Below, in pieces: positions 7,762 through 64,000 of a stretch of 64,000 nt of DNA; positions within the stretch are counted from its first letter, which is position 1; each line of letters starts with the position of its first letter. The notes beneath the pieces were generated by a model. It was not told the DNA's origin, ran no database searches, and was given only the letters and a program-made list of their open reading frames with translations. The stretch is from Reclinomonas americana ATCC 50394 (Eukaryota). A program made the translations under genes and the position numbers. The stretch spans positions 80,340 to 144,339 of the forward strand of contig PS015016.1 in the NCBI GenBank assembly GCA_048213135.1, in the 5' to 3' direction.

Positions 7762-8333
7762 AAGAGTTGTGTGAGAACGAGAAATTGCCGTACGTGTGGC
7801 CCACCCACATGCACAGATTCAGCGCAACACGTACCTGCACTTGCCACCCGTGCGTGAGAGCTTGTCTTTCGTCCTGAGTCGCTGCACACGCACACGTTGC
7901 CACTTCACAGTTGGCAGGTTGTGTCGTCTACGTAGACGTAATCGCAGCCATGCATGATTAATTGCAGTCCCTGNNNNNNNNNNNNNNNNNNNNNNNNNNN
8001 NNNNNNNNNNNNNNNNNNNNNNNNNNNNNNNNNNNNNNNNNNNNNNNNNNNNNNNNNNNNNNNNNNNNNNNNNNNNNNNNNNNNNNNNNNNNNNNNNNNN
8101 NNNNNNNNNNNNNNNNNNNNNNNNNNNNNNNNNNNNNNNNNNNNNNNNNNNNNNNNNNNNNNNNNNNNNNNNNNNNNNNNNNNNNNNNNNNNNNNNNNNN
8201 NNNNNNNNNNNNNNNNNNNNNNNNNNNNNNNNNNNNNNNNNNNNNNNNNNNNNNNNNNNNNNNNNNNNNNNNNNNNNNNNNNNNNNNNNNNNNNNNNNNN
8301 NNNNNNNNNNNNNNNNNNNNNNNNNNNNNNNNN

Positions 8334-9807: not shown

Positions 9808-10261
9808 NNNNNNNNNNNNNNNNNNNNNNNNNNNNNNNNNNNNNNNNNNNNNNNNNNNNNNNNNNNNNNNNNNNNNNNNNNNNNNNNNNNNNNNNNNNNN
9901 NNNNNNNNNNNNNNNNNNNNNNNNNNNNNNNNNNNNNNNNNNNNNNNNNNNNNNNNNNNNNNNNNNNNNNNNNNNNNNNNNNNNNNNNNNNNNNNNNNNN
10001 NNNNNNNNNNNACAGCTGGAACGAGAACGCCGCACCAAGGACATGCCTGAGGAATGATGAAAGAGTGTCGACTTCGATCGCGGCCGCGAACTAGGGGTAC
10101 GGCAGCACCCCAGAAGCCAATGTTGGGAAGCACCCCGTCCCCTTCTTTTTCTGGTCGACAGTACCCCGCACCCGGTGGGCAAAAAAAAGACTGCACCCCC
10201 CCCCCCCGCTCGCGCGCGACAATGATTGTTTGTTCGCCCCCTTCTGCTTGCTCTCCGCAGA

Positions 10262-10724
10262 ATGACCAAGATCTCCACACACGTTCTCGACATCTCCCGC
10301 GGCTGCGTGGCACGCGGCATTCGCGTAGACCTCGAGCGAATGGATTCCTCTGGCGCCTCCTCTTCTTCTTCTTCCTCCACTGGTGATTTCGTGCTGGTCG
10401 GCAATGGAGTCACCGACGACGATGGTCGCGTGCGTGTGTGGAAGGGCGACAGCAGCGAGGCCGGCAGTGGTGCTGCAGGTTGCGTTTTCTTTCCCACCCC
10501 TCTGTGCATTCGTTTGTGTGTGTGTGTCGGCATTGATGACGATGCTGATAGATGGAACGACGTATCGCCTGACGTTCCACACGGGTGAGTATCTGGCGGC
10601 GTACGTGGAGCGCCCGTTCTTCCCGATTGTGCAGCTGGTGTTTGTGGTGCCGAATGGGCAGCAGCACTATCATGTGCCGCTGCTGCTGTCGCCGTTTGGA
10701 TACTCGACCTATCGGGGATCGTAG
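10262..10724 (+). CDS. uraH: 5-hydroxyisourate hydrolase (transthyretin-related protein), one intron 10479-10551
   Basis: N-terminal ISTHVLD, TDDDGR, HYHVPLLLSPFGYSTYRGS with the diagnostic C-terminal YRGS. Confidence 0.95.
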
Positions 10725-10868: not shown

Positions 10869-13646
10869 TCACAGCAAGTTGCAGTCGTCTCCCTTGTCCT
10901 TGCGCCTCTGCTTCTCCAGCGCCTTCATCTCGTCCTTCGTGATCTGTGATGTGTGTCGCGCTTGTGAGTTATCGAGTGGAGGACGGGGGCTTCGAGGGCG
11001 CCGCGGGAACGCACCTGTCGACCTTCTTGTCGTGCGCGATGCTGCAGTTCGGCCAGGCGCCGCTGATGATCCTGTGAAAAGGAAGCGATGAGTGAGGGAA
11101 GGCACAGCACTCGACGCAACGGGCGCACACATACCTCCTCCGCACGCTCATCCTGCCCGCACATCAATGGCACACGCAACAGAGTGAGAAACAGGTCCTC
11201 TAAGGCAAAGCGTGTGGAAAGGTCACACAACACACACCTGTGACATGTTGCGACGACGGCGATGCTCCTGGCGCGCCTCTTGCTCCTCCTCGTACTGCAG
11301 TCGCCGTGCCAGCTCCTCGTCCGTTCTGCGTGAGAGACAGAGAGCGATAAGCAGGTGCGGAGACACAGTCGCCGACAGCCGCGCGGCGCAACTCAGGGCC
11401 AGCGGGGTATTGCGGCGGGCGATTGTAGTTGGGCTGGTGACGCGGATCCACAGCCTGCACATATGCCGATGTGGGATGCGCCGGATGCTGCGGGCCAGAG
11501 GACTGAGCGGGTGCCTGCTGCACGAACCAAGCGAGGGGTGAGTGAGACGGAGAGGCGGCACAGCGGTGTGTTCCTTGCGTTGAAACACACACCCCGTGAT
11601 GCTGCTGCAGGCTGGCCACGAATCCAGGACCACAGTACTGATTGTTACCGCTTACCTGCGCCACAGAGGAGGACGCGACTCACTTCAGCAACGCAGTCGA
11701 GCAAATATGCTCTTGCTTGAAATACGCAACATTCTCAAACAACTCCCACATGACGTCGGGCGCATCGAGGAAGCCAACATCGGTGGCCAGCAAGTACAGC
11801 CGACCGTGGAATTTGTACATGGTGCTGAAGTGATTGTTGCGGAAGAACACGGCCATTTCCGTCTGCGGCGAAAAAAATGGATGAGTGCTGAGCGGCAAGC
11901 GATGAGAGAGAGACAATGCGCACCTCTCGCACGAGGTCCTGCAGCGCGCCGAGACCCCATTGTGTCAACTGACTTGCCGAAGCCTCCAGGAAGCTGTTCA
12001 ACAGGTCGGCTTCGTACACCAACTGTTCCCTCTGCTCCTCTGTCATGCCTTGCGGCGGAGGTCCATCTGGGCACACGGGAGTTGGGCACTCATACACACA
12101 CGAACACACGCACGATGTGAAAGACGCACCATGCCGCAAACTTGACGCATTGATAACCTGCTCCACCACTTGGTTGTAGCTCTTGTCGCCAATGATGCGC
12201 TTCAGCTCTTCGTTGGTGGGATCCACCACCCATCCGTGGTACAGGTTGATGCCCATCATGTCGAACACGTCCATCTGCGACGTGTACTCAAAGTCCGACG
12301 GACTGTGCATGCCACCACCACCACAGTGAGCGATGCGAACACAAACAGACGGCGGGAGATCCAAGAACGAGGGGCGGACCTGCGGAAGCGCACATTGACG
12401 TCGAGGCCGCGGAGGAGCATGGGGAAGTGACCAATCACATCCGACAAGTGCTCCACAAAGCCCGGCTGCTCTTGTTGCTGCACGCGACATGCGATGAGAT
12501 CGAAAAAAATGAAGCAACGACCTGGAAAGATGATGGGGGCACGAACCCTTTGCGTGTGTCTGAACATGTAGTCGCCGAGTGTCTCGAGCAGTTCGCGCGC
12601 CGAAATCATCGAGATGTCGGAGTGGATGGAGATACACCGAGCCAGGAGAAGACCATTGGCTGCATAGCCGCCGTCAGCCACATCATCACAGATACATCAC
12701 GGTCATCGCAAGCCATCACTCACCCAGTGCCTGATTGTAGTCGCCGACAGAAGGAGGAAGAGAGAGGGAGTGAGCAAGAGACACAATGAGAGGGAATCAT
12801 GGAAGGCCGGCTCACTGTGACAGCACACGACACAGGTCAGTCAAGCAGCAGAACACGAGGCGGCGACCGCGCAAACGTCACTTACTGCACCGACAAAGAC
12901 GCGTGAGTGAGCAACACAATCACACCACGGACAACTTCTTGCCACTTAATCACTCACCCCAACAAAGGACACGGGCCGTTCTCATTCTGCAGCACTGCAA
13001 GAGCAACACGCAGACCGCAGTGAGCCAACCCAACAACGCACACATCGCCACACTCACAATCATCGAACACGCACCAATCGACACCGGTTGCCCGTGGAAC
13101 GAGGTCCGCTTCAGGTGGAACATACTCTCGCCTCCCGACATGGGAGCCGGCGGCGCCGCACCAGCCGCCGGCACTGCTGCGACTGGAGGCGGCGGCGGAG
13201 GCGGCAACAGCACTGCTCAACACTTTATGAGCACACACACGCAGACGGACAGACGATTCTCTCTTAACAAATACCTTGCTGCGCCTCCTGCTCGGCCACT
13301 GCGGCCGCCACCGACGCATCCTGCTCGACTTGTCGCTGCACACTGGCGGGTGACATGAGACCCGGGTGGTGTTCCCGCTGCACAGCGGCCTCTGACACAA
13401 TCACTGGTGCAGGAGGTGGCACTGGATGTGCTTCTTGTGCTGGTACTGGTGGTGCTGCTGCTGCGTGATAGACAGGAGCGGCGATCACCTCCGCAGCTGC
13501 TGTGTGTCACACAGTGAGCGCGTGTGTGTGTGAGAAATCGTTTGACAGGAACATCATCATCTTGTTTTCACGCAACGATGTGCGGCCACGACTTCTGTGG
13601 CGAACGGCGGCAACATGTCGTCATCTGCGACGACTGGATGCGACAT
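10869..13646 (-). CDS. MINDY1: MINDY-1/2 (FAM63) family deubiquitinase with MIU-like motif and C-terminal CaaX box, multi-exon
   Basis: Spliced product has QNENGPCPLLALAN (catalytic Cys), GLDVNVRF, LYHGWVVDP, FFRNNHFSTM (catalytic His), DEELARRLQ, and ends DCNLL*. Confidence 0.92.
12731..12959 (-). other. Three-layer nested spliceosomal intron (double [D1,2] stwintron)
   Basis: ttg|G G GTGAGT...GTGCAG TAAGTG...TCACAG TGAGCC...AATCAG|gca; sequential removal gives introns of 73, 71 and 85 nt and restores GPCPLL-ALAN. Confidence 0.85.
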
Positions 13647-15752: not shown

Positions 15753-18192
15753 TCATGGCGACGATGCTTCGTCGTCATCGTCCACGGCGACGGCGTGTGA
15801 GGTAATTGTGGTCGCGGTACTCGAGATTACTGCGGTGGAGGCCGATGCTCCCAGGTCGCGTTCGTATGACATGTCGCCGACGGCGCCGACCAGTCCCAGC
15901 CGATGCGCGTGCTTGCGGTTGTAGTTCCACTGTACAAGGAAGCCGATGCCGATCGCCAGTCCCCACTGTAGGATGCATGTGGCGAATGACTCGCGACTGA
16001 GTGGGTTCCACCATGGGAACTCCTCCGACAAGCAGGCCTGCGAACGCGCAAAAAAGGTGAGGCATGTGTAACACACCAGTGGGCGACATGCACTGTGTTT
16101 ACCTGCACGAGCGATGCCAAAAGGAGCACACAGCCCTCCACCGGCACGACCCAGGTGATGATAATGTCCCACCATCTGCCCACCTGTTCATGCATCTTCA
16201 GTACAGAGCACGGATGGCAATGCTGAATAAAACAGCACACACACAGACCTTGTCGTGCTCATTGATATTGATGTAGTTGGTGCGGAAGTTCTTGGCGCCG
16301 CCCTTGAGTGCCAACAATGCACACCCGAGACCGCACAGGATGAGACCATTGCCCCACACAAAGTCCTGCACGCGAAGCAATCAGGGCACAACAGCAAGGC
16401 AGCAGGCAACAGTCACACCCGTCGTCGAACCTGATTGGAGAGGTACGAGACGCTGAGGCTGGGCGGGATGGAGCCGGCCAGACAGAAGATGAGCATAAAA
16501 GTGAGCACACGCGGGCGCGGAATGCCGACCTCCGTGCCGATCTTGAGCATCAGATTCAACACCGAGATGTACGAGGTGAAGGCGGCGAAGCTGAGACCGA
16601 GGAAGAAGATGACGGCCAGCGGGCGTCCAAACGTCATCTCCGAGAAGAGTACTGGCAGGAACTGGAAGACCAGACCGGTGCCGGCGACACCACTCTCGCG
16701 CATCTGCAACACGAGCTCCTCCTGTGACAAGAAGGAAAATGAGTCGCTGGAGATCGACAGCTGTGGTGGCGACAAGGATGCGAACCCGAGTGTAGCGATC
16801 GCCCAGAATGCCCCACGTGGCACCAAAGATGGTCATGCCGGCGATCAGCGAGACGCAGTTGTTGCCGATGGGTGTGAGCGCGGCCGTTCTGTTTGATACA
16901 CAATCAAGCAAGTTAGCACAGTGCATGCAAGGCCGCACACATCAACCCAGTCCGCAACTTGGAGATGCCGTTGCGTTCCTATGGGACCGAAGAAACAAAA
17001 GTGAGTCACGGATCTTGCGAGATGAAGAACTTGCTGCCACTCACTGCATGCACAATGCACAGAGTGTCAGCACAATTTGAAGCGGCGACTCACACAGCAT
17101 GCACACATTGCTCACCATCAAAGTATGTCGCATACGACAACAGAATGCCCTGCCAACAAGAAAAAATGGTGCACGCGTCAGCATCGAGCATGTCTCCACT
17201 CGTGAAATCTACAACGACTGCGCACCCAGCCTGCCGACGTGTCAAAGCTGGTCTGTGCCAGCGCTTCCAGATATGCTGTGGGGTTCCACAAAGTGGACGG
17301 ATCGGGTCCAAACATGTAACCGAGACCGCCGCTCGCGCCCAGGAACAGACTGCGAATCCAGATGATGCACAACACCACCAGCAGTGCCGGCACCAGTGTA
17401 TAATTGACCCACTCGATCGAGGCCAGACCGCGCCAACAGCCCAGGATGGCCAGTGTCACCACAATGGCATTGAACAGGTACGGCCATGGAGTGTTCACAA
17501 AGTCGGCGAACTCGCCAGCCGCCTCCGCTGATGACGTTGGCAAGTCATTGATGATGTAGTAGAAAAAGTAGCGTACACACCACCCGTTGACCACGGCTGC
17601 GTGCGGAGGCGTGTGGTAAGCACTCCACACATCCCCATCATTTGCACAGCGAATGATGATGGTGGCGCAACAATAGTAGAGTTCGATCATTACGTTGTTG
17701 ATGACTAGGAAGACTCCGATCCAGCGGAACTTGTCGCCCAAGAAGTATGCAAACGTGCGGATCTACAGCGAGAGAAATGAGTGCGCGCTGGGTACATCAT
17801 GGCAAGCGTGATTATGCGTCAAACGCACCAAGCCTCGTCGTGCCTTGCGGCCTGCGGCGTACTCCAGTAGAATCTACCCATTCACAGAAAAGATCAACAG
17901 CCGCGTATCATCGCCACCGACGAACCGCGACAAACCAGCGGAATGGCCCAGATGAACAGGAACGTGAGCCAAATCAGCAGAAAAAACAGCGCTCCTTGCG
18001 TTCCGCTATTGCGCGCCACAATGCGTGCAAAGCGCCACACTGCACCACACACACGTCAGCGGTTCACCCCATGCTCAACACACGAGTGCACAGACGCACC
18101 ATTGCCTGTGCCGACAGCGCATCCCAACAAACTGAAGAACGTCGTAAACTTGTTGGAGAAGCGCTCCGATTTCGTCTCCTCGCTGCGCACAA
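15753..18192 (-). CDS. Sodium:neurotransmitter symporter (SLC6/NSS) family transporter, paralog 1; start in gap
   Basis: LGCAVGTGNVWRFAR, WAIPL|ILLEY, ALAQTSFDTSAGWG, GTGLVF, FFLGLSFAAFTS; many hydrophobic helices. Confidence 0.92.
16979..17116 (-). other. Two-layer nested intron ([D1,2] stwintron, also resolvable as [A2,3])
   Basis: gat|G GTGAGC...ATGCAG TGAGTG...CCATAG|gaa; internal 72 nt, external 66 nt; restores ungapped alignment with the paralog. Confidence 0.85.
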
Positions 18193-19217
18193 NNNNNNNN
18201 NNNNNNNNNNNNNNNNNNNNNNNNNNNNNNNNNNNNNNNNNNNNNNNNNNNNNNNNNNNNNNNNNNNNNNNNNNNNNNNNNNNNNNNNNNNNNNNNNNNN
18301 NNNNNNNNNNNNNNNNNNNNNNNNNNNNNNNNNNNNNNNNNNNNNNNNNNNNNNNNNNNNNNNNNNNNNNNNNNNNNNNNNNNNNNNNNNNNNNNNNNNN
18401 NNNNNNNNNNNNNNNNNNNNNNNNNNNNNNNNNNNNNNNNNNNNNNNNNNNNNNNNNNNNNNNNNNNNNNNNNNNNNNNNNNNNNNNNNNNNNNNNNNNN
18501 NNNNNNNNNNNNNNNNNNNNNNNNNNNNNNNNNNNNNNNNNNNNNNNNNNNNNNNNNNNNNNNNNNNNNNNNNNNNNNNNNNNNNNNNNNNNNNNNNNNN
18601 NNNNNNNNNNNNNNNNNNNNNNNNNNNNNNNNNNNNNNNNNNNNNNNNNNNNNNNNNNNNNNNNNNNNNNNNNNNNNNNNNNNNNNNNNNNNNNNNNNNN
18701 NNNNNNNNNNNNNNNNNNNNNNNNNNNNNNNNNNNNNNNNNNNNNNNNNNNNNNNNNNNNNNNNNNNNNNNNNNNNNNNNNNNNNNNNNNNNNNNNNNNN
18801 NNNNNNNNNNNNNNNNNNNNNNNNNNNNNNNNNNNNNNNNNNNNNNNNNNNNNNNNNNNNNNNNNNNNNNNNNNNNNNNNNNNNNNNNNNNNNNNNNNNN
18901 NNNNNNNNNNNNNNNNNNNNNNNNNNNNNNNNNNNNNCGTGTGTGTGTGTGTGGGTACGACATGTGCTGCGGAAAGACACACAGCTTCGAGTGCACACAG
19001 GAAGCAGCCACGCAACGGCGTGCGCAGACACGAGGAGCGAGAGAGGGGGAGGGGAGGGGAGGAGAGAAAGACACGCACCATTGCACCAGACGGGTTACTA
19101 GCTTTCCGGACTGGAAATTCCGCGCGTCACCCTCTTGCATTGCCGTTGCGGACAAAACAACATCGCATCGTTGTTGGAGAAGGAACGTGCCTGCGAAATC
19201 AAACAACAGCCAGTTAC

Positions 19218-22200: not shown

Positions 22201-23519
22201 TCCCCGCACCTCCTGGACCGCCGGCCGGTCACGGACGACGAAGCGGGCGTCGTGGAACGAATGTCTCACTGATGTTGGTGGAGGACAAGGTCTGTGTCGC
22301 ACTTGTGCACCTTGCGCTTCTCGACCGCCACAGCACTCACCCCTCCAGCTACAACAGGATTCACCAGTGGAGAGCCCACAAGAGAGTCCAGTCAACGCAG
22401 TGTCAGAACCCACGGCCCCCAAATCTAAGTTGAGTCCGCACATAACTGAATTCCCATATTCTCTCCAACTCACTCGCTTACTCTTGTACCCCCCCAGGCC
22501 TGAAGATGAGGACAAGGCGCCTCGCAAACCGCGTGTGGGACCCGATGGCGTGCCGGCGTATGCCGTCATGACACGCAGCACCAAGGTTCGCACTGCTTCC
22601 CGTGCATGTAACTGGCTGTGTGTATTGTTTGAAGTGCTCACGACCTTACGTGCTTGTCAATCAGTTGCGCACGGGTGCCGAGCAGCCGCCACCCAACACC
22701 AACACCAACATGTTCCGACTCGACACCACTGGAGCGCCAGTGGCCCGACTGGCGAGCATTGACTCGCCGCTCACCGACGACGAGTCGCAGCTTCTGTCGC
22801 GCAAGGCATCCGGTTCCAACGGACAGTCGTTGTGGCGCACTGGTTCGGACCGCGAGAGTGTGTCGGCCTTTGGTGTGGCGCAGGCCACAGTGGCGACGGC
22901 GGTGGCAGCCTCCACCTTTGCCAGTGCTGTCAATGCCAGACGGCTCCAGTCGGCCACTCCGTCGCAGAGCTCTTCCACGACTCCCACGACAACTGCGTCG
23001 ACGACGACAACGACCACAACTGTGCAGCGCAGTGTCTCGGAACCAACATCGCCGCGCTCGACACTTGTGTCGGCCATTGCAGAGATCCCCAAGTGAGTCT
23101 CATATTATCCTTGCCTGCAATGACGACGATCGTTTGGCACTCACTCCGTGCACGTGTGTGGTCTCGGCAGTGCGCTCATGTCTGCGATCAATGCCTCCAC
23201 GCGAGCGGTGCTGTTTGGACGTGGACGCAGTGGGTCATCGTCCACTGGCTCAACTCCCGTGCCGACTGCCACGATAGCGTCGGCCGCCTCACCGACCGTG
23301 ACCAGCACGAGCGACATTGTCGCCGCCGGTATGCGGGCACGTGGCTCCTCGTTCGGCAACGGCAGTGTTCTGCCTCTTGTGGGCGGTGAAAGCATCGGCA
23401 CACTGCGACGGACAAGCAACGAGCAACATCAATTGGCCGTTGTGACGATGGAGGAAGCTCCACGGCCGGCAGGGCTGCCTGCCGCCCGTTCTCGACCGAC
23501 GTCGGGAACCAGAAAATAA
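19218..23519 (+). CDS. Large coiled-coil protein with Ser/Thr/Pro-rich tail, hypothetical, multi-exon
   Basis: Exons join in frame through canonical introns (e.g. 19484-19575, 20546-20630, 22429-22497, 23093-23170); heptad-rich segments. Confidence 0.75.
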
Positions 23520-23673: not shown

Positions 23674-26659
23674 ATGGCAGCAGCCACGGTTGAGTTGTCT
23701 CGCTCACATCGCACACCCGTTCCAGAGTGCCTCACCTGAACTCTGTGATGTGTGCAGGATGTGGAGCTGCGTGATCTGCGGCTCGCCGAGTCAAGTCGCA
23801 GTGCCGACACTGATGACACCGACGAAGTGGTGTCGCCAAGTGCAGCCGAGGACGAGCTGCTTCCACGTCGCACCGGGGACGAAGTGGAGAGAATAGAACA
23901 CGCAAGTGGCGGTGGCGATCGCAATGCGTCGTCGTCCAAGGAGTTGTGTTCAGATGTGTGTGAGTGTGCATTGTGTGGCAGGTGTTGATCGTGTGTGGTG
24001 ATGCAGACAAGCACAGCAGGCAGAGGCATCGCAGCGCTTCTCGTCCAAGTGGGCGCTCTTCTTCTCGGTGTTGGGAGTGCGTACACTGTCGATCTGTTTT
24101 GTCATGCATATGTCTGTGTGACTCAACTGGTGCGATGCAGAGTGCTGTGGGGTGAGGCCCGCATGCAGCTTGTTTCTGATCTTTCTGTCGCTCTCTCACT
24201 CGCTCGCTGTGCTCTCCTGTTTCGTCCAGCACCGGGAACTTGTGGAGGTGCGATTGTCTGTTGTGCACTCTGTTGTTCGAGCCCTGCCTGACTCGATCTG
24301 CTTTGCAGATTTCCGCGCATCGTCGCCGCCAATGGAGGCAACGGCGCGCTCTTCTGGCTCATCATCTGGAACGTCTTTCTCTTCCTCTGGGCCATTCCGT
24401 TGGTGCGGGCACACGCTTGTGACGAGACCACACTTCACACTGAAGACTCATTCTCTTGTTCTGCGCCGCAGATTCTTGTCGAATATGGTGCAGGCAGACA
24501 GTTGCGTGCCCATCGATGCAGTGATCTCGCGTGTGTTGAGCACGGCTTGACTCTTCCACACGAACTCCACAGAGCACGGAAAGGAGCAGTTCGTTGCTGG
24601 GGAATGGTGATGTGGTGCACCGTCACGCTCGATGCTCATGTCGCGTGTCACAGGTGGGCGTGTTTTCGCACTTTGTCGGCGATCGATATCGGTGGATGGG
24701 CTGGTACATTGTGCTCACCAATGTGGTGATTATGGTTCGCCGAGTTTTTTCTCTCCTCCCTCGTCGCTGGGCGATTTACCTTCATTTTTCTGGCGTAGGC
24801 CTATTACGGCACACTTACAGGTTGCTTGATGTTACCCCTCGAGGTCATCTGCGGTCACCACTCACTGTTGCACGCGCCGCAGGATGGTGCATCTACTACT
24901 CGGCCGTGTACATTTTCGTGCCGTTGCCCGAGTCGATCGACGATGCCTCCGTACAGTTCAGCAACTTTCTCGACTCACCGTGGCCCGTCGTCCTCAATCT
25001 GGTCGTGCTGCTCCTGGGTCTGCTGTGCTGCTGGAAGGGAGTCAAAACCATTGAGCTGGTACTCGCGCATCGACGTCGCTTCGTGCGCAGGAGGGAATCG
25101 ATCTCACTGCGCTGCATCGTCGCAGGTCAATCTGGTGCTCGTGCCTGTGCTGCTGCTCATCATGGTGGGCCTCACCCTCCGCACTATCTTCATGAGTGTC
25201 GACGGCATTGCGTATCTGTTCTCGCCCGATCCAAGTTGCGTCGTGCTTTGCCATGGCACGTGAATGTTGTTGTGGCGCGCGCACCGACGAGCTGTGTGGA
25301 TGTGCAGGTGTGCTGATCGATCCCAGAGCGTATTTAGAGGCGCTGGCACAAATGACGTTTGACACGTCGGCTGGAACAGTGAGTTGCAAGCGCAAGCGCA
25401 TGTGCCATCTCGTTTGCTCACCTCGCACATCCACGACCGTCGCGTAGGGTGTGCTCATGACCTACGCCACGTATTTCAACGAGCAGGACTCGGTCAGCGG
25501 GTGCGTTCATCTGTTGCTGCCACTACGTCGTCACTCATTCACTCGCTCATTCACACTCACTTACTAGGCTTTCGTGGTTGACACCAATCGGTAATAATGT
25601 GGTGTCGCTGCTGGCGGCACTGACCATGTTCTCTGCTGGCTTCGCCGTGCTCGGTCAGAATGGACTGGACCGCGCCGCGGTGATTGCCCAGATGAAGGAG
25701 AGTGGTGTGGCCGGCACCGGCCTCGTCTTTCACTTTGTGCCGCAGCTCTTCTCGCAGATGCCCTTCGGCCGCCCTATTGGTGCGCGCATGTGTGTGTGTG
25801 CGTCGCTACTAGATTGCGCACTGACCTGCATTTCCTGTGGTAGCCGTCGTGTTCTTTGTGGCACTGAGCTTCGCAGCCTTTAGTTCGTACATTGCCGGTA
25901 TCATTGTGCCGCTCAAGGTCGGCTTCGATATGGGTGTGTCGCGCGGTCGAGTAGTCTTGATTGTCGGTGCCATTCTGCTGGTCTTTTCGCTGCCGAGCTC
26001 GTTCAGTGTCTCGTTCCTGGCCAATCAGGTGCGCTTACTTGCAATGGGGCCAAGGAATGCAGCAGACGCTAACCATCCTCCTCTAGGACAACACATGGGG
26101 CGTTGGTGAGATCCTGTGTGGCATCTTTGTGGCCTGGTTGGCGGTCGGCGGACCGGGTGGTGTGCGCCAGTTCCGCGAGACTGTGATCAATGTGGCAGCG
26201 TCGGATCGCGTCGGTCGCTGGTTCGATTTCATCATTCGCTTTGTGGTGCCGATCGAGACCATCATTCTGTTTCTCGCGTACACCATTCAGGTGCGCTGCG
26301 CACCGCACCACGCTTCCTTGTGACAGTATGCTGTTATTTTTCACACTCGCCACCACAGATGGCACTGGAAGACAACTGGTGGGATCCGTGGGCTGTCGAG
26401 TCGCTGGCCACCTGCTTGATCCAGTGGATCATTGGTGAGTCTCACTTAATCTCCCGCGATCGCCCGTGTGTGTCACTCAAGAAGCGATGCATGACGGGCA
26501 GGATTCGGTGTGTGCTTTGTAGCACAGTGGATGTACTCGCGCAAGCATCCGACAAGAGCCGCCGCTCGGCACGATGCGGTGGGCAGTCTGTCGTATGAGC
26601 GCGGAACCGAGCTGCAAGACAGGAGACACGACGAAGAGGGCGATGCCAACATAACATGA
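23674..26659 (+). CDS. SLC6/NSS family transporter, paralog 2, many introns and micro-exons
   Basis: Spliced FSSKWALFFSVLG|SAVG|TGNLWR|FPR, LEALAQMTFDTSAG, TPIGNN, GVAGTGLVF; collinear with paralog 1. Confidence 0.92.
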
Positions 26660-26749: not shown

Positions 26750-27934
26750 TCACCGCCTGCTGCCGTGCGCATTCTCATACCGCTGCAGCAGTGCCTCCGC
26801 CATCTCACGGTGGTCAAACGCAAAGTCCACTGAGTCGAGTCCTTCCCGAGTCAGCGGAATCCAGCGGTAACCCATGGCCTGCACACGCAAGTGAGCACAT
26901 GGGAACTGGCCTTGAGAGGGAAAAAAGGGACATCGGACGCAACATCGTCGCCGGGGCACAACGACACAAAGCTCCTGACCTCCACGTGGTAGCAAATGGA
27001 GACCTGCACAGCGCACCGTGAGAAAAACAATACAAGCAGTACGCACTGGCGGACAGACGCACCACATGCTTCCTCTTGTCGCGTGACGGGTGCCCGAAAA
27101 CACCGACCACAGTCGGATTGCTGCCGACCAAATTCGTCTCCTCGTGCAACTCACGCAGCACCGCATGCACCGGATCCTCGCCGTACTCCACATACCCGCC
27201 TGCGGCCAAGGGCGACAAATTTATAAGTCCCAGAGAATAAAGAGTTAGCTCCTGACTAAAAAGCACAAACACACCGGGCAATGCGAGGACTCCGCGGAAT
27301 GGATCACGTCCACGAACTATCAACAGCAACTGCGGCTCGCACGACTCGTCGTCGCCGATACGCACCACTCCCGCATCGACCTGCACACACAAACACAGGT
27401 GTCAGTCTGTGTGAGCCTTCTTTTCTCGCATTTCGCGGCGATGAGAAGTTTTCACGAAACTGTCAGCGCGGGGTTCCGGAACACGGGCTCATGTGGCGGC
27501 AGTGGCGGGTACTCGTGACGTGGTGGCAGTACGAGCACTGTCTGTGCTGGTGTCGCCACTGGTGCAGTAGCAGCAGCAGCAGTGGCGGTTGAGGTACCAT
27601 CGTCAGCAGTGGCGGCGGGAACGACCACTGGTGCAGTGGAGTCGCCTGGCGATGACGATGTGGTGCGCACTGATGATGACGATCGATCATCCTCATCGTC
27701 ATCGTCAGTGTCATCAGTGTCATCGACGACATCGTGCACGCGCAAGTCATCGTCGGCAAACGCGGCGCGCTTGCTGTGCTGCAGCATCATCTCCGAAAAT
27801 GGCATCAGTGGTGGCGGCGGCGGGGGTGTCGCGGGGGCTGCAGTTGCGATTGTCGCGGGCTGGCTGCTGGGGCCAGTGGTGGAGAGGGCCAGTGGCGGGG
27901 GGAGGACAACAACAAAGTCGGCGTCGCTCACCAT
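26750..27934 (-). CDS. Nudix hydrolase with low-complexity N-terminal extension
   Basis: NPALT|VDAGV...ALPG|GYVEYGEDPVHAVLRELHEETNL (Nudix box), RDKRKHV, GDDA, AFDH. Confidence 0.9.
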
Positions 27935-28027: not shown

Positions 28028-29027
28028 ATGCGGCTTGAGAAGTGCTACTTTTGCGGGTCCACCGTGTACCCGGGTCACGGCATGACCTTTGTGCGCAACG
28101 ACTGCAAGGTACGTGTGAGCGCGCGGCGAGAATGGCACAGACACAGACAGACACTGTTGATGGAGATCGTGTGCATGCGCGTGTGTGATACACATGCACC
28201 TGCACCGAGTTGAAGATGGCGGTGGTGGGAGGGCAGGATGGCAGGCAGCGAGTGTGTGGGCGTGCGTGTGTTGTGTGTACATGTGCACATTCACATCACC
28301 CGCCGACTCACGCACACACACTTATTTGTGGAGGAGACTCGCTTGTGCTAGCTGCTGCTGTTGGTGGGAGGTCCCTTATACATATGCCTGGCGCACAGAT
28401 TTTCCACTTTTGCCGGTCCAAGTGCCACAAGAACTTCAAGATGAAGCGCAATCCACGCAAGCTGCGCTGGACCAAGGTGTTCCGCAAGGCCGCTGGCAAG
28501 GAGTTGGCTCTTGTTGCGTCCCGCTCCCACTCTCTCGTTCCTTGTGTTCTTCAAGGGCCGCCATCTTATGCGCGCGCGCGTGTGTGTGTCAGGACACGAC
28601 ATTCGAGTTTGAGAAGCGGCGACACAGACCGGTCAAGTACAGCCGACAGTTGGTGAGCGACACGATCAAGGCGATGAAGCGTATCCAGGAGATCAGAACA
28701 CGACGCGAGCGCGCCTTTATGGAGAAGCGCTTCCGCGCGGCCGAGAAGCAGCAGAAGCGACAGACGCTGCAGGATATCGCCAAGCACGTCAACCTCATCC
28801 CGTCGCGCACACTGCGCGAGCGTGCCCGCATGCGCGTGCGCGCGCTTCTGGCCAAGCGCACAGACGCGGAGATGGCCGAGGGCGGCGCGGGTGGTGCGTC
28901 GGGAAGCGCAGCCGAAGGCGACGCTGCGGCGTTCATGGACTTTGAGAGCGACGGCGACGACGATGATGATGAGGATGAGGAGGGTGCGGATGAGGACGAT
29001 GGTGTGGAAATGGTAGAGGTTGAATGA
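28028..29027 (+). CDS. RLP24: Ribosome biogenesis protein RLP24 (RSL24D1), two introns
   Basis: [53 protein letters not shown]...[15 protein letters not shown]. Confidence 0.97.
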
Positions 29028-29443: not shown

Positions 29444-29812
29444 CAAACTGACATCGTGCCGCCGCTGCAGTGCCAGCAAATTCTGGAAAAGTACGAGGAC
29501 AAGTTGCTGAAGGTGCTGAAGAAGTGGACCGACACCCAGTTCATGCACCGCTTCTGTGTGGAGGTCACCGGTCTGTGCCCCGACCGGCAGATTCTAGAAA
29601 TGACGCCAGAGGAGGAGGCTCCAGCCGCCGCCGCTGCTGCTGCTGCACCAGCGGTCGACAGCAATCAGGAGCAGCAGCAGCCGCCAGAAGAGCAGCAACC
29701 ACCGTCGACTGTGGAGGCATCGGCATCAGAGACTGCTGGAGAGGAGCCAACACCTTCCGAGCAGCCAGCCTCTGAGAACAACGGCAGCAGCAGCACACAC
29801 GAGGAGTTGTGA
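29444..29812 (+). CDS. C-terminal exon of a saposin-like (Canopy-type) ER protein
   Basis: CQQILEKYEDKL...FCVEVTGLC saposin-like Cys spacing, acidic tail, C-terminal HEEL ER-retention signal. Confidence 0.65.
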   Translation, partial: QTDIVPPLQCQQILEKYEDKLLKVLKKWTDTQFMHRFCVEVTGLCPDRQILEMTPEEEAPAAAAAAAAPAVDSNQEQQQPPEEQQPPSTVEASASETAGEEPTPSEQPASENNGSSSTHEEL

Positions 29813-31302: not shown

Positions 31303-34230
31303 CGCGCCCTTGCTGGCATCGCTGAGGTGCCGGTGGACCGCTCAACAGTGGTCCCTGACTTGCACGACCGTATTCAGTTCCTGCGCAAGTTGAGTCTGTC
31401 TCCCTCTCCTGATTGATACCGGGAAACGGAACGCGGCGATTGGAAACTGATATTTTTGTCGGCGCAGGTTGGTGGCCGACTTGGCCGGCGAGTTTGAACG
31501 CGAGGAGCACACATGGAGGGCCGAGTCGCTGCGATACGAGCGGCAAATCGCCGTTGCGTCTTGATGCGAGCGCAACGTGGCATACAACCGTGATTTGCTA
31601 ATATTTCAAGGCGATACGTACACAGGAATCCGCAATCCAACAGCAGAAAGTACGAGAGTTTGAGACGGCACGGCGCATGGAGATGAGACTGGAGAATGAG
31701 CGAGATCGACGAGTTGCGCACACGCTGCGGGCAGTCTCTGGATTTTATTGTCTTCTCATCGCTGGCGCGCGCAGGACCAAGCTCGCAAGATGGAGCAAAT
31801 GCGAGAGGAAGTGGAGCGCATGAAAAGCAAGTGCGACATGGACCGGCAGGCTCTTCGACTGCTGCAGCGACAGGATCGGTCTGCCGCGCTGTTGGACAAC
31901 TGTCGTACTGCAGCGCACACTGGTTTGCAATTGCGTGTTGCAGTCGTCGAATTCTTGATAGGCCTGCGTGCTAACTTTGCTCGAATGCAGCACTGCGCGA
32001 CTGGGTGAACACGCAGCTGGATGAGATGCTGGCAAATCACAAGGACCTGGTCGCCTCGGTGGCCGAAGCGGTGCGTCGCGGGATGCCGACACCTCCTTTT
32101 TTCCTCCGCCGCCCGTTTGCCTAAAAGAAACTCGCAACTTGTTCATTGCAGGCGCGCTTCTCTCGCGATACGGACTCGAGTTCGTCGGAGAGTATGGATG
32201 ATCGGCTGGAGGGATCTGGTGTTCGTTGCGTTGTCGTTGATCGCCAGTGGTGCTACGTGGAGCCTATGCGTGCTCACTGCGCACAATCGTACAGAGTCGG
32301 TGCTGCAGAAAATGCTGGTAGTGCAACACTTGATCCGCTACATCACTCACCTGGAGAAGGAGGTGAGCGACCGAGCCGAAGAACTGCGTCAAGTTCGCCA
32401 ACTGCTGTCGGCTGCTGCGGTCTGTGTGTGCCACACTCCCCGCATTCCTCTGCACTTGTGCACTGACGATACCGCGCGCGCAGCCCCTCGGTGACTTCGA
32501 GGCGCCGCCGGAGAGACCCGAGCTGATGCAGGGAGAGGCTGCGGAGCTGTACCGCAGCGCTCTGCAACAGATCTACGACACGGTGCAGCAGAGTGAGAAG
32601 CGGCGGCAGTCGATGTGTGCGGCCATCATGCCGGTCACAAAAAGCAGCGGCGCCGTGCGCGCCACGGGTCGGTTGCGTAGCAAGTCCACAGTGATCATCG
32701 AGGAGAACAATACCGAGGTCGACGACATCGAGGCCAGCTGCAATGACGACGTGGGAAAGCCAAAAACAGTCAAGCTCGACCGCATACAGTCCGCAGGCGG
32801 TGCCGTCGCACACGGCAAATCTCGGAGTGTCGACATTTCCGTGCCGGCCTCATCGCCGACGGCGGCGACAACAGCGCCGGTGGAGAATCGGCGGCGGGCG
32901 AAGCATCAGCGTCGAAAGTCACTCTGCTTTGTGCCCACCACGGCCGGCACCCGAGTCAGTTTTGACGAGGCCGACACCACCGGACGAACAACACCGCCGC
33001 CACCGACCAGGTCGGTCAGCGACAACCAGTTGCATGACGATGCCGCTCCATCGCAGCTGGCAGACAATGATCCACCACCAGCAGCGACGCAACAGCCATC
33101 ACAGCCACACGACGAGGGATTGGGCCCAGAGGACTCGTCGTCGACAATGCCACTCAGCGACGACTCCACGGACGCCTCGTCTGGCCGGACGGTGGAGGAG
33201 CGCAGCAGTGGCCGGGTCGGATCGAGTGGCTCCCGCAGCGCCAAGCTTTCACCGCCACGACTGCCCGGTGAAGCCGCTCCTGCCGTCGACGCTGCGCCGC
33301 CGTGGAAGCCACCGCCGGTTCAACTGCCGGCTCCGCCTCGCGACCGACCAGTCCTGCCACCGCTTGGTGTCTCCACGGACTTGTCGCCCTCCAGGAATCG
33401 ACTCAAGGAGGCTGCCAAGTTACTTGCACATCACACACCACTCTCTCTCTCTCTCTCTCTCCCCACTGTGTTGTCTGTGACGCTGACGCTCGCTGCGTAA
33501 CAGGTTCAACGGCACCATCATTCCAGTGCAGTTCAGTCTGCGCTCGAAGACCGGCGAAGAGATTCCCGCAGACGACATACAACCAGAGACACAGGCGGCA
33601 GCGGCGGCACTGGCGGCCGATTCAGCCGCCGCCGCTGGTTTCGGCGGCCGCGCACCACTTTCCATCTTGCCACTGTCACTCACCGATGCCGTGGTGCCGC
33701 GTCCGGAAAACATCATCTCCATTCCACCACACCAGCTGTTGTACCTGCAGCAGCAACAGCAACAGCAACAACTGCAACAGCAGCAGCGCGCTGCGGCGGA
33801 CTGGCGACTAAGTTATCGATCGCCCTCGCCGGTAATGCCGCTGTCATCTACCGCCAACAACAGCAGCAGTCTCCGCGTCAGTCACGATCGCTCGCTGTCG
33901 TTGTCGGTGCCGGCTGGCGATCGCCTCTGGTCGATGGTCCTGGAAGGCGACGATACACGCAGTCTCGCACTCTCCGCCACTTCCCTGATGGTGACAGCGA
34001 CTGGAATGGCGGAGAAAGAACAGGGAGTGGTGGTCATGGATGCGCCACGGTCGCAGCGACGGTCGACGAGCTCCCGCATCGATGCACTCGAGAGTCGATC
34101 GCGCTCACTCTCGCCCACGCCACCATCCAGTGCACACTCAGCCGCAACCCTATCACCCCCACCCAGTGCCACCTCGGGGTCGTCCACGCCACTGCCGCGC
34201 ATTGCTCGTGCGAGGCGGCAGGAGACGTAA
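31303..34230 (+). CDS. Hypothetical protein, coiled-coil N-half and disordered Ser/Pro/Gln-rich C-half; start unresolved
   Basis: Exons join in frame via GT-AG introns (donors 31389, 31553, 31712, 31923, 32071, 33419). Confidence 0.65.
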
Positions 34231-34326
34231 AGAAAAAGAGCGAGAGAGAGAGGAGAGAAAAAAGTAGTGAAAGTAACGCACTACGTGTTTGTTTCGTTTC
34301 CAGCTCTATGCGTCAGTCACCTCGTT

Positions 34327-35437
34327 TCACTCGCCTTCATCGCCCTCGCGCACACGAGACCAGTTGGGACTCGGCCGGTCGGGAGCGAGCCAATTGAAAT
34401 CCTGCACACAATCCCACTTGTTGACATGCGACTGCAGTCGACTGTCACCGGCCAGTTCGGCGATCCCCTTCCACGGACCGAACTGAAGCCGCGTACACCG
34501 TTCAATGATGGGGTTCGAGCCTGCGTGGATGTGGAAGACACAGTCGGTTGTGTCGTGGATGCGGAACTGTGCACACGATAGTATGAGAAGTGAACAGACG
34601 TGGACCTTGTTGTCAAGGCAGCAAAGTGCACCTGATGCGCTGCGATGCGGAAGGTGCACGACTGGCACGACTCCACGTACACACTGCCGCACACACCGCC
34701 GAGTTCGACGGTGCAATCGCGCAATCCAATAATGTGCGCAGCCGACGCCAGCACATGCCACTCCACCGAGGCACCCTGCAGTTCATGCAGCACCAGATCC
34801 TTGCCGGCCGGCGACGCGCCAGTCCACTCAGCCGAGCGCAGACACGAGGCAGCCGGCACCTCTGCGGCCGTCAACACCACCGCGTTGGCATTGCGCAGCG
34901 ACTCGACACTGCGCACAGCCGGCGGCGCACTCGACGAGGAAGAAGTCGAGCCTCCGCCGTCGCCAGCAGCTGAGCTCTCGGTCTTCACCACACGTCGCGA
35001 GGCAAACGAAAACTTCTTCTTCGGCACCGCCCGCTCACGCGCACCAGTCACCTCCCGCGTCAGATCCTCCAGCAGCTTCTGCACTTGCCGAGTGTCGTAC
35101 GGCGTCAGAAAATAGGCCGAGCTCGAGAACAGGTTCGACAGCGTGGCCACGCGATCCAACAAGCCCACAAACATCGACTCCTCGCCCGCACCACCAACAG
35201 TCGACAAGACCGCGCGTATCCCTGTCGATCGCCAAAGGTGAGAACAAAGACAACTCCCATTCTCTCTCTCACACACACACCCTGCGCCTCCTCCTGAATG
35301 CGAGTCAACACCACCGCCGCATTCTCCGACGGATCTGCCTTCTCCTCGCGCTCACGTCGACGCTCTTCCACCGCTCGCTGTCGTTCTTCCATGCGTTCGC
35401 GCATGCGAGCTTCAATGCCCGCCGCCGCCGCTGTCAT
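34327..35437 (-). CDS. TBCC: Tubulin-specific chaperone C
   Basis: FLTPYDTRQ, PKKKFSF, GSVYVESCQSC..IAAHQ|FRIH...PIIERC...NKWDCVQDFNWL. Confidence 0.95.
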
Positions 35438-55279: not shown

Positions 55280-56401
55280 TCATGAAGCCGCCTTTTGTGC
55301 ATCCTTTTCTTCCTTGTCTGCCTGCTGCTCTTTCACCATGCGCTTGATGGCCTGCCATATACACGTGAGTGCACGCATAGGGGACAGATACACACACAGC
55401 AAGCGCGTGCACGTTACCTCCGGCATGTAATTCTCATCGTGCTGCGGCGGAGAAGACGGCGCTTCAGAAAAACAGCAACACAAACGAGTAAATGCATGTC
55501 AACTCCTTCTCACCTTTGCCAAAACTTCACTGGCCTGGAAATGCCCCGGCCGGTCCATGACCCCGTCGACCACCACACTCTTTCCCTCACGGAACAGATC
55601 CGGCAGCATCCCGCTGCAACACGTCACGGTCAACAACAGTCACTTTCTCTCCTCTATCTCTTTCTGCAATCTCACCTGTACGACACCTGCGCAGCGCCAA
55701 ACGATGAATTGAGGAAAACACACCGTGGCAACAATCACACAGCAGAGCACAGCACTCACCTCGATCTCATTCTCGAGATCCGTCACCTGCACCAAGCAGC
55801 AGTGAGTGACAAGCAACCACCATCGACGCGACAAAGCACGCGAACCGTAAAGTCGATATTCATGCTCGTCGCCGAGTGCCGCACCGAGCCCTCCACGACC
55901 AGTCCACCCAAGCGGAACCGCTTCGCCTGATCGTCAGGCCGCTCCAGCGCCTAGCCGCCTTCATCAACACCAAATGCACACACACTCCTGCAGTAATACC
56001 AAGAAGCAAGTACGCGCACCTGCGTCGGCGTCAAGTAGAACGCCACGTTGTCTTCAAAGGCGTTGAGCATGAGGAAGATGCCGGTGCCGACGACTGATCG
56101 ATCAATCAGGAATGCATCACTCGTAACACACACTCTCTCTCACACACACACCAACAGACGCCGCGCCAGCGTACATGAACCGACGATTCTGGTTGCGTGA
56201 GGTCACGTTGACGGAGGCCGGTCCGCGCGGCGAAGACGCAGAGAAACTGCGCGGAGTGTGAGATGCAAATGTGCAAGTCAGATGCGTGTTTTCTTCGCAC
56301 CTCGGTGTCTTGCGTGCGCCTGGTGGTGGTGGTGGTGGTGGTGGTGGTGTTGACTGAGAGAACAGTCGCCGACCAGCGGCCCTCCACACGTGGAAGAACA
56401 T
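55280..56401 (-). CDS. ccmE: Cytochrome c maturation System I heme chaperone CcmE, nucleus-encoded, 8 introns, presequence-like N-terminus
   Basis: [68 protein letters not shown] (HxxxY heme site). Confidence 0.95.
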
Positions 56402-57908: not shown

Positions 57909-60900
57909 ATGGACGATCTCCTGAAGCAGCGCCTGGAGGCAGTGCTCCACATTGCCCACCAGAAGAACTGCTCCATTGAACAGCTGTCAGCCGTACAGAA
58001 GGACTGGATCGAAGCCGGATGTGTGCAGGTGAGCTGCAGAGAGAGAGAGAAGAAGAGATACAGAGGGAGGGAGGAATGCACACCACCAGCGCACTCGGCA
58101 GAAGAACACGCAGTCGAAAAAGAGTGTGAAGCTGTCGCTCGTGCACATTCACATCAACGAGGCCATGTACGACACCGCGCTCATCCCGACTTGCGCGCCA
58201 GGTGGCCTCTCTGGAGGACGAAGCACGTGCATTGGACGCTATGGCTGAACTGCTGCTGCAGCCGTCGCTCACGCGTGTCGTGTTGGGTCAGTGTGCGCGG
58301 CCGTGGTTGCCGCTGTTGTGCGTGCGTCTGTGCTCGCGCCACCGACTGCCCTCCACTGCCGTGCTGTTGGCACTGACGGCCATTGTCCGCGATGCATCAC
58401 CATCTCGCACAGTGGAACGGTTTGCCGTCTGTGTAGGGAACCTGTGAGAGACAAGAAGAGGGAGTCCTGATTGATGATGATGATGATGATGCAGAGTTGT
58501 GTTGGACTTTTTCGAGAGCACTCCGCACGTGTCGGATCTCGTGGCACAGGCGCTTGCCGTGAATGATGTTGCGTGTGTGTCTGTTCTCTCTCTCCCTCTC
58601 TCTTCTCTACCTTCCATCTCGCTCATCGCGACACGGGCAGGAGACAAGTCTGATGGATCTGGTGACGGTGGCGCATCGGTGTGTGCAGTGGCACGCTTCG
58701 CACTTTGCCAGGCGATGGAACTGCGGTGTGTTCGTGCGACTGCTGGACCACCCAAATCCGCGTCTGCGTGTGCCTGCAGCTCGGATATGCCGTGCGTTGG
58801 GCTTTCTCAGTGCCGAGCAGCTGGTGGTCGCCACCAATCGCGACTCGGATCAGATTGACACCGCGTTTGTGGCGAGTGAGGTGGACGAAATGTTGAGTAG
58901 CTCGTATTGGCAGTTGGTGTCATGCCCTCAGGTTTCTCACGTGGTCGCACGACAGAGTGGAGCTGTCGGAATCGGTCGACAAGCTGGCCGTGTCGGAGAC
59001 GGGTGCCGACGATGCAGCCTCGTCGCAGTCGCTGCGCCAGCAGCTGGCGGTGCACATTGAGGGATCCTCGCAGCTGGTGTCTGTCGAAGGCGTTCCACTG
59101 TATCGCAAGAAGAGTGCTGCGTCGTCGGCTTCACATGCCAACAGGTGAGGTGTTTGTTGCTCGTCCTGATGGCGCACGGGAATACGGGTTGTGTGACACG
59201 ATGCGTGTTTTTGCACAGTTCATCGTTTGTGTCGACCGAGACGTCGGCGAGCAATCTGCGCATGCTGGCGCTGGCGGTGAATCGATCGAACGCAGTGTTG
59301 CTTCGCGGACCCGGTGGCTCCGGCAAGACGCTGCTGGTGGAGCACTTGGCTCATGTCACTGGCAATCATGGTGACTCACCTCCGTTTGTGTGTGCTCCCG
59401 CCAGAGTATGTGCTAACATGCACTTCAATCTATCCTTTTGTTGCGCTCAACAGACCTCATCCGCGTGAATCTTGACGACTCATTCGACGCAAAGGACCTG
59501 CTCGGCACGTACGTGTGCACGGAGACACCGGGTGAATTCAAATGGCAGCACGGTGCACTCACCAAGGTCGGTGCCTTGCACTCTTGCATTCCTTGTCATC
59601 ATTCTCTGCTCACCCTCATCGACACTGACAGGCGGCAGTGGAGGGCCGGTGGATTCTGATCGAGGACATTAATCTCGCCTCCTTCGACGTGCTCTCCATG
59701 TTGGTTCCCATTCTAGAATCGGGTGTGATGCGCATTCCCGGTAGTGATGAGGTGCACTACGCAATGAGCACGTGAGTGCGTATCGTGTTGATCCTCACCA
59801 GTGTGTGTGTTGTTTATTGTCACAGCCTGTTCCAGTTCATCAAGGCTTCACGATGTTGGCCACGGAGACGGCCGATGCGGGGCGCTTCAAGGGTCCGCTG
59901 TGGTGGTTTTCTTTTACGCAGCGCTTGTTTGTTTTGTGTGCACTCATTGCGTAAACTGTGTCGCGCAGAAATCCCCACGGACAAGTACTGGTGGCCGGTG
60001 TACGTGCAACAGATACCACCTGCTGAACTTCCCGATCTTGTCGCGCATCGTTATCCAGAAGTGCAGCTTGTAATTCCTCGTATGATTGGTGAGTGCATGC
60101 TGAGTGGAGAGGGAGAGAGAGACGTGATGTTGTTCACACAGAGTGTGTTTATTATATCTGTCTGCAGCCACGTACGAGTTGATGTGCCGCATGTCGGACA
60201 GCCGAGCGTGGAGCGTCGGCGGTCCGACGCCAGGTGACGATGGCAGTGCTGCGGCCGCAATGTCGCCGCTGCAGGGCACCGTCGCTCGCAGCATCTCGCG
60301 CACTTTTTCTTTGCGGTGCGTTCTTCCGTTCATGCTCCGCGCGCTGGCGGTTGCGGCTGCTCAGCTTAACATGCCGTGCCATGCTGCAGAGATCTGATGA
60401 AGTGGGCCAGTCGTGTGGCTCGCTTGCACATGTCGCATGGCGATGTGTCGTACGTGACAGAGGCGATGAAACAGGTGTGTGCGAGTTTGCCTCCGCCCCT
60501 CGCGCACCACAGTGCCTCTCGCTCACCAGCCGTGCAGGGTGTTTTGCTCGAGGTCATTGACTGCTTTGCCGGCATGATCAATCGATCAGAAGTGCGACAC
60601 CATCTGGCGCAGGCCGCTGGTCGCTTGTGGGATCTTGGCTCCGATCAAATCAGCTACTTGTTGTCGCAGCGCAAGCCGACGCTCTCGGTTCGTTTTTTCG
60701 ACAGTCTTCTGCATTGATTGTTTATTGGTTTGTCGACCGACCGCGTCGTGCACAGGTCGACAAGGGTCACGTACAAGTGGGTCGAGTGTTTCTGCCATCG
60801 CGCCGACCGGATGGACAGCTGTTGCCACCCTTTGCGCAGACCAAGCAGGCGTTGTTGTTGCTCGAGCGGCTGGCTGCGTGCACCTTTCTGCGTGAGCCGG

Positions 60901-63900: not shown

Positions 63901-64000
63901 CGCTGCGCGTAATCACATTGTGTTGAGCATGCGTGACGCGGCTTCGTGGGTGGACTTTGCCAATCATGCGTTTGTGCGACTCGGCGCCACAAGACGAGAG
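57909..64000 (+). CDS. MDN1: Midasin AAA-ATPase, 5' part, runs off the window
   Basis: Successive AAA modules: GPGGSGKT, GETGTGKT, GPTSSGKTS, GETGCGKTT; LDELNLAP, FATQNPPGLYGGRK, ATMNPGGDFGKKELSPALRSRF. Confidence 0.97.

Follow-up and report, generated by a model that had tools for sequence, protein, structure and literature searches.

A 138-nt intervening sequence in an NSS transporter gene is probably a nested intron removed in two steps

We analysed a 64,000-nucleotide (nt) stretch of genomic DNA from contig PS015016.1 (hereafter the window, the whole stretch to which all positions refer), on the minus strand of which lies paralog 1, a transporter gene of the NSS/SNF family. Its coding sequence is interrupted by ten ordinary introns and, between exons 6 and 7, by an intervening sequence of 138 nt that has the layout of a stwintron, that is, of one spliceosomal intron nested in another. 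An earlier sequence-only reading of the window had proposed this interpretation, and here we weigh it against the alternatives. Both the 138-nt segment and its host gene are read on the minus strand, and the coordinates of all features are collected in Table 1.

After removal of the ten introns and the 138 nt, paralog 1 reads as 540 open codons up to a stop at 15755-15753; one run of N in the assembly cuts off its 5′ end. The gene model was built by hand from the translations and checked by translation. In support of its family assignment, a 122-residue exon scores 30.4 bits against the Pfam profile SNF (PF00209; cut-off 27), and a HMMER search with the largest exon against 1.84 billion representative proteins returned 151 matches at E ≤ 0.001, the best with 55% identity. 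The named sources among six matches that we looked up were a jakobid transcriptome, an Anaeramoeba transcriptome and a nemertean. For paralog 1, tblastn matches were collinear with P0001 and P0003. A second member of the family, paralog 2, lies nearby on the plus strand, and the ordinary 70-nt intron after exon 7 of paralog 1 is common to both paralogs, at the same codon and in the same phase.

Layout of the 138-nt segment

Exon 6 of paralog 1 ends in ..tac ttt gat at 17117 and is followed by a single G (17116) and then by GTGAGC (17115-17110). Within the segment, ATGCAG ends at 17044 and directly abuts TGAGTG (17043-17038), and at the 3′ end CCATAG stops at 16979, immediately before exon 7, which starts gaa cgc.. 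at 16978. Every feature that the sequence-only reading had listed between 16979 and 17116 is present in the place it had given. These landmarks delimit two units, one of 72 nt and one of 66 nt, which have one G in common and each contain a branch-point-like motif (Table 1). As read from the sequence, retention of either unit would bring in an in-frame stop.

Taken from its 5′ side, the segment has the arrangement termed [D1,2] (PMC5587772): the first and second nt of an external donor are separated by a complete internal U2 intron, and excision of this intron creates a canonical external intron of 66 nt (G17116 plus 17043-16979) with a branch-point-like motif and an acceptor of its own. The correct frame is not given by the one canonical reaction that joins GT17115 to AG16979, which takes out 137 nt and shifts the frame. 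Taken from its 3′ side, the same segment has the [A2,3] arrangement, in which ..GCA precedes GTGAGT..TAG (17044-16979) and a G (16978) follows the last acceptor.

Introns of the window

As a reference, we assembled 34 ordinary introns from four genes of the window, namely the two NSS paralogs, a MINDY deubiquitinase gene and a CcmE gene. All four gene models translate without stops, with exon-by-exon support from Pfam or homologue matches. The introns are GT-AG without exception (34 of 34), with 27 CAG and 7 TAG acceptors, and measure 58-78 nt (mean 66.6, standard deviation (s.d.) 5.2); CTVAY motifs stand 14-31 nt from the 3′ end in 22 of the 34. Given this narrow range, one undivided intron, whether of 126, 137 or 138 nt, would lie 11 to 14 s.d. 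from the mean, and lengths of 72 and 66 nt are typical.

Scored with matrices from the 34 introns, in which the real minima are −0.1 bits for donors and 3.0 bits for acceptors, the 72-nt unit has a donor of 4.2 bits and an acceptor of 7.0 bits, and the 66-nt unit a rebuilt donor GTGAGT of 6.8 bits and an acceptor of 5.1 bits. Donors in this set are degenerate: GTGAGT is matched in frequency by GTGCGY, GTTGCG and GTTCGN, a T occupies position +3 in about a third (GTTGCG, GTTCGN), and a G precedes the donor in 27 of 34. The sequence-only reading had called the rebuilt donor perfect; GTGAGT is indeed rebuilt, but neither it nor GTGAGC is especially strong by the usage of this genome.

A suspected anomaly in transmembrane segment 3 (TM3) of paralog 1 (17671-17597, minus strand) is a plain 75-nt GTTGCG..CAG intron, and a U12-type or AT-AC reading of the same region was rejected on inspection, the consensus being absent. 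As this intron is in frame and free of stops, the stop-to-stop open reading frame (ORF) runs through it, and a naive gene model adds 25 residues.

Protein spacing and splice paths

The amount of sequence removed was judged from the spacing between the conserved G-x-G (GWG) of TM6 and the NN of TM7. Among 150 listed homologues, 50 contained both anchors and enough downstream sequence and were used; in 87 a regular expression did not find the first anchor, and 13 were too short. In a MAFFT alignment, the spacing is 25 residues in 44 of these 50, and the exceptions are two of 26 and one each of 24, 23, 20 and 33, three of the six appearing from their alignment rows to be truncated or frameshifted at this place. 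Paralog 2 has a spacing of 25, and paralog 1 reaches 25 only with 138 nt removed. The gap-free alignment of this product to paralog 2, as claimed earlier, is borne out over 18 residues.

On a profile built from the same 50 homologues, the product with 138 nt removed scores 89.0 bits and paralog 2 scores 78.8 bits. Single introns of 126, 120, 117 and 153 nt give products of 79.5, 78.4, 77.2 and 69.8 bits, respectively. In-frame single GT/GC-AG introns thus do exist in this stretch (donors 17131, 17104, 17098 and 17095), and all of them add or delete residues. The earlier statement that one-step GT-AG splicing is out of frame is correct for GT17115-AG16979 but had overlooked these other canonical introns, which fit the family worse.

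We also listed all stop-free paths through 17149-16786 that use no more than four GT/GC-AG introns, none of them shorter than 30 nt. The best of the resulting 5,124 canonical paths (5,091 distinct products) scores 84.8 bits, requiring poor GC donors and exons of few bases, and none reaches 89.0. When sites had to score at least as well as those of the weakest real intron, 16 paths remained with introns of 50-90 nt (maximum 79.5 bits) and 46 with introns of 40-160 nt (maximum 82.7 bits). Taken together, these comparisons indicate that TTTGAT/GAACGC is the best-supported mRNA junction, by a margin of 4 to 10 bits that falls short of absolute exclusion.

The alternative that survives best is a single ordinary GT-AG intron of 126 nt, running from the donor GTGCAT at 17104 to the AG at 16979 and leaving four extra residues after ..YATYFD. 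Such an intron is in frame and stop-free, and its donor, at 4.0-4.4 bits, lies within the real range (−0.1 to about 9) and is no worse than GTGAGC; because the two score about the same, donor strength does not decide between the readings. The product, however, lengthens by four residues a stretch that is 25 residues long in 44 of 50 homologues and never exceeds 26 in well-aligned rows, and it falls 9.5 bits lower on the profile. Moreover, 126 nt is far beyond the 58-78-nt range of the 34 introns, and the internal CAG/TGAGT junction and its branch motif are left unexplained. We consider this alternative improbable.

A likely second case in a MINDY gene

About 4 kb from the transporter case lies the MINDY gene (11700-12960), which matches Pfam MINDY_DUB at 1.6e-24. 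One of its exons, ..LQNENGPCPLL, has its last base at 12960; G G GTGAGT comes next, and the two extra Gs before the GT equal the two internal AG/T junctions that separate three successive units (Table 1). Downstream of the complex intron come a 7-nt exon and an ordinary 64-nt intron. In the product, ..CPLL is then separated by three residues from NGLLLA... These flanking stretches match residues 27-38 and 42-73 of human MINDY-2 (6z49_A), which are likewise three residues apart; each match is weak singly (E about 0.8), but the two are collinear. A protein search with the MINDY ORF gave one 175-residue match that was uninformative for the N terminus. Of 11,320 canonical paths, 269 preserve the frame of both flanking exons. 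Only one of these yields three residues, and it requires an intron of 239 nt, an exon of 5 nt and a GC-AG intron. On this sequence evidence, and with its third unit weak, the stretch 12959-12731 is likely, although not certain, to be a doubly nested [D1,2] intron. The second case within 5 kb that the sequence-only reading had mentioned is most likely this one.

Assembly error, one-step removal and chance

In dinucleotide shuffles of the interior of the 138-nt segment with both ends held fixed (n = 20,000), an internal split no worse than the observed one appeared 75 times. This bears on the idea that the assembly carries one surplus G at 17115/17116 and that the true gene has a canonical 137-nt intron, GAT/GTGAGC..TAG/GAA. 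The mRNA would be identical, and the assembly, with its 19 runs of N, is of draft quality. Yet no other frameshift occurs in about 3.2 kb of coding sequence of the two paralogs, the 137-nt intron would lie about 13 s.d. above the mean length, and the internal junction would need to have arisen by chance (75-926 of 20,000 shuffles). The MINDY case would need two spurious Gs, which makes a one-base assembly error unlikely as a general explanation, and for the transporter gene we regard a surplus G as quite improbable.

One-step removal through non-canonical ends, either GG..AG (17116-16979) or GT..GG (17115-16978), would result in the right mRNA, and occasional one-step removal is reported for some fungal [D1,2] stwintrons (PMC9024468). 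We nevertheless hold it to be very improbable here, given that the ordinary introns are all GT-AG, that the length would be an outlier and that two complete internal sets of signals are present. Just as improbable is that paralog 1 is a decaying copy with another paralog 7 kb away, or that the stretch is mis-spliced or retained, so that no exact removal takes place: the 540 codons stay open across 11 intervening sequences, the family motifs are kept and the remaining splice sites are all intact.

Several points weigh against nested introns in these two genes. The product with 138 nt removed leads the best of the contrived canonical paths by only 4.2 bits, and donor strength gives no preference (GTGAGC 4.2, GTGAGT 6.8 and GTGCAT 4.4 bits). 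Any split that passes the thresholds set by the weakest real sites is found in 926 of the 20,000 shuffles (4.6%). The intron matrices and the gene models were made for this analysis, from four genes. The third MINDY unit is weak, with a length of 85 nt, an acceptor score of −2.2 and a branch motif 40 nt away. The assembly is, in addition, a scaffolded draft, in which the 19 N runs (for example, 18193-18937 and 7974-8333) amount to 1,826 bases and most are exactly 20 long.

With these points taken into account, we consider it probable that the 138 nt are a [D1,2]/[A2,3] stwintron that is removed in two steps. The stwintron interpretation of the sequence-only reading is supported in this respect, every prediction that we tested at the level of the sequence having held.

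Proposed two-step removal

From this layout we infer that the segment consists of two ordinary short U2-type introns overlapping by one G, and that standard splicing could start with either of them. On the [D1,2] path, it would begin with the 72-nt intron (17115-17044) and join G17116 to TGAGTG, forming the donor GTGAGT; in the second step, the 66-nt intron that begins at this rebuilt donor and ends at 16979 would be excised. On the [A2,3] path, the 66-nt intron (17044-16979) would leave first, joining ..GCA to G16978 to form the acceptor CAG of the 72-nt intron. Both paths would converge on the mRNA junction TTTGAT/GAACGC. The sequence agrees with two earlier claims on this point: excision of 17115-17044 builds the GTGAGT donor of a 66-nt external intron, and the reverse order, in which G16978 completes the 72-nt acceptor, gives the same mRNA.

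Two steps would most likely be explained by a pairing of splice sites across very short introns of near-fixed length (intron definition). All of the micro-exons that we found (7, 11, 11, 18, 20 and 22 nt) are flanked by introns of typical length, and exons this small show that splice sites here are paired across introns, as the two-step model requires. An exon between two units that had shrunk to zero or to minus one nt could be the end point of such 7-22-nt micro-exons. Stwintrons in general are the clearest natural evidence for splice-site pairing across introns, and they provide a possible route to intron gain and to intron shifts of one nucleotide.

Complex introns make up 2 of the 36 intervening sequences in the four genes, one of them apparently doubly nested (GGGT), which is a small sample. 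The earlier suggestion that such introns are common in this genome is compatible with that count, but the count comes from four genes. We tentatively raise the possibility that nested stepwise introns are a regular feature here, the spliceosome taking only introns of about 58-85 nt and longer ones being built from units of typical size that leave one after another. In any gene of this genome with such an intron, gene predictors that assume one-step GT-AG splicing would introduce a frameshift or a truncation.

Host lineage and known stwintrons

The window contains a nuclear gene for CcmE, a marker protein of the System I pathway for cytochrome c maturation. One of its exons scores 39.7 bits against PF03100, and the profile positions covered exon by exon are 13-45, 46-58 (inferred) and 59-91. 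The lineages listed with ccm genes are jakobids, heteroloboseans, malawimonads, ciliates, plants, red algae and a few other protists, and fungi are not in that list (PMC5174734). A nuclear CcmE gene points to a protist lineage that bears System I, and the host is therefore probably not a fungus. If the stwintron reading is true in a CcmE-bearing lineage, the design would not be peculiar to fungi.

Stwintrons of the [D1,2]/[A2,3] kind have been demonstrated by reverse transcription PCR in two Pezizomycotina, Helminthosporium solani and, in the DHA1 antiporter gene, Trichoderma reesei, and the layout has been used to explain one-nucleotide intron shifts (PMC5587772). The segment in paralog 1 resembles the stwintrons described there in the G before the 5′ donor, the G after the 3′ acceptor and the overlap of two internal introns by one G; as in that description, both paths would give the same mRNA by standard U2-type steps under intron definition. 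It differs in lying in an NSS transporter gene of a host that is probably not a fungus, in being predicted from sequence and in belonging to a genome whose donors are much more degenerate than those of fungi.

The sister and symmetrical stwintrons of Hypoxylaceae and Xylariaceae are described as [D1,2] as well, with the donor split after the first G (PMC9024468, PMC12403724, PMC8469720). Unlike the Hypoxylaceae stwintrons, the 138-nt segment has no similar copy longer than 14 nt in the 64-kb window (blastn), and it has no stable hairpin or symmetry (fold z-score 0.37; 120 of 200 shuffles fold as well). The 72-nt and 66-nt units show no clear relation to each other by sequence. The ratchet points of Drosophila are also removed stepwise, the first step regenerating a 5′ splice site (bioRxiv 10.1101/006163). 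As described there, however, they are complete AG/GT junctions within very long introns for which one-step removal is also canonical, whereas the junction here, CAG/TGAGT, has no G after the AG, each piece measures about 70 nt and canonical removal in one step breaks the frame. For the GGGT arrangement of the MINDY gene, the comparison, made by description, is with the reticulon-like genes of Lipomyces, a fungal case in which several U2 units are nested at the donor (PMC7138796).

The stwintron literature that we found was fungal or cited fungal work only, with supplementary tables that may list further taxa, and among titles and the beginnings of abstracts we found no nested spliceosomal introns in protist nuclear genes. 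Stwintrons of this kind are already known, and the case in paralog 1 is possibly the first outside fungi.

Scans and neighbouring genes

A strict scan for the architecture on both strands of the window gave two matches, the 138-nt segment and a false one in which an exon and an intron of paralog 2 had been taken together. Under relaxed criteria there were 206 matches, the MINDY case among them. In a scan for stwintrons of all types, the matches at 11863-12019 and 25302-25448 were each rejected as an exon plus an intron and that at 55614-55759 as two introns around an 11-nt exon; further matches lie at 29637-29782 and 32424-32557. Rfam gave no match on the window, and none of 597 matches of a metagenome pattern scan for related loci was confirmed. 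Word-index protein searches with the largest transporter exon and with the tubulin cofactor C ORF returned no match, and a comparison of RLP24 with solved structures was no guide to the host lineage. A gene finder of our own (codon log-odds plus splice matrices) recovered 6 of 10 and 9 of 12 known introns exactly, produced junk at the midasin gene and was discarded. A histogram of donor-acceptor distances between strong sites was too noisy to yield an intron length distribution. The neighbouring genes listed at the end of Table 1 were each assigned by Pfam on single ORFs.

Table 1. Position and strand of the features discussed, counted from the first letter of the window
Feature	Position	Strand	Remarks
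NSS/SNF transporter paralog 1 (host gene)	15753..18181	-	reaches an assembly gap at its 5′ end
Complex intervening sequence, 138 nt	16979..17116	-	between codons GAT and GAA; removal restores the frame
72-nt unit, GTGAGC..CAG	17044..17115	-	internal intron on the [D1,2] path; external on the [A2,3] path, where it would end in A17045 + G16978
66-nt unit, GTGAGT..TAG	16979..17044	-	internal intron on the [A2,3] path
Branch-point-like CTGAC, 72-nt unit	17066..17070	-	its A lies 23 nt from the AG at 17044
Branch-point-like CTCAC, 66-nt unit	17001..17005	-	its A lies 23 nt from the AG at 16979
Ordinary 76-nt intron upstream of exon 6	17150..17225	-	
Exon 6, 33 nt	17117..17149	-	ends ..YATYFD
Exon 7, 20-nt micro-exon	16959..16978	-	ERNGIS plus 2 nt of K; starts with the G that the [A2,3] path needs
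Ordinary 70-nt intron after exon 7	16889..16958	-	GTTGCG..CAG
NSS/SNF transporter paralog 2	24020..26659	+	16 ordinary introns, none at the D/E position; about 7 kb from paralog 1
Candidate second complex intron, MINDY gene	12731..12959	-	G G GTGAGT..CAG/TAAGT..CAG/TGAGC..CAG; 7-nt exon after it
MINDY unit 1, 73 nt	12957-12885	-	ends GTGCAG; TAAGTG next
MINDY unit 2, 71 nt	G12958 + 12884-12815	-	ends TCACAG; TGAGCC next
MINDY unit 3, 85 nt	G12959 + 12814-12731	-	ends CAATCAG
Micro-exon, 7 nt	12724-12730	-	MINDY gene
Micro-exon, 11 nt	24141-24151	+	paralog 2
Micro-exon, 18 nt	24230-24247	+	paralog 2
Micro-exon, 22 nt	24799-24820	+	paralog 2
Micro-exon, 11 nt	55676-55686	-	CcmE; 13 profile positions filled by 9 + 4 residues
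CcmE, nuclear gene	55514-55950	-	three introns of 59, 73 and 62 nt
HIUase/transthyretin	10226-10721	+	
NUDIX protein	26817-27401	-	
RLP24	28161-29024	+	
Tubulin cofactor C	34320-35351	-	
Midasin	58500-64000	+	AAA_5, AAA_lid_7

Junction patterns of the form GGTGAGTG .. YAG/TGAG, with units of 72-74 nt, also occur on the minus strand at 32277-32351 and 22269-22341, and a similar pattern at 25107-25176 (minus strand) runs antisense to paralog 2, where it presumably arose by chance.

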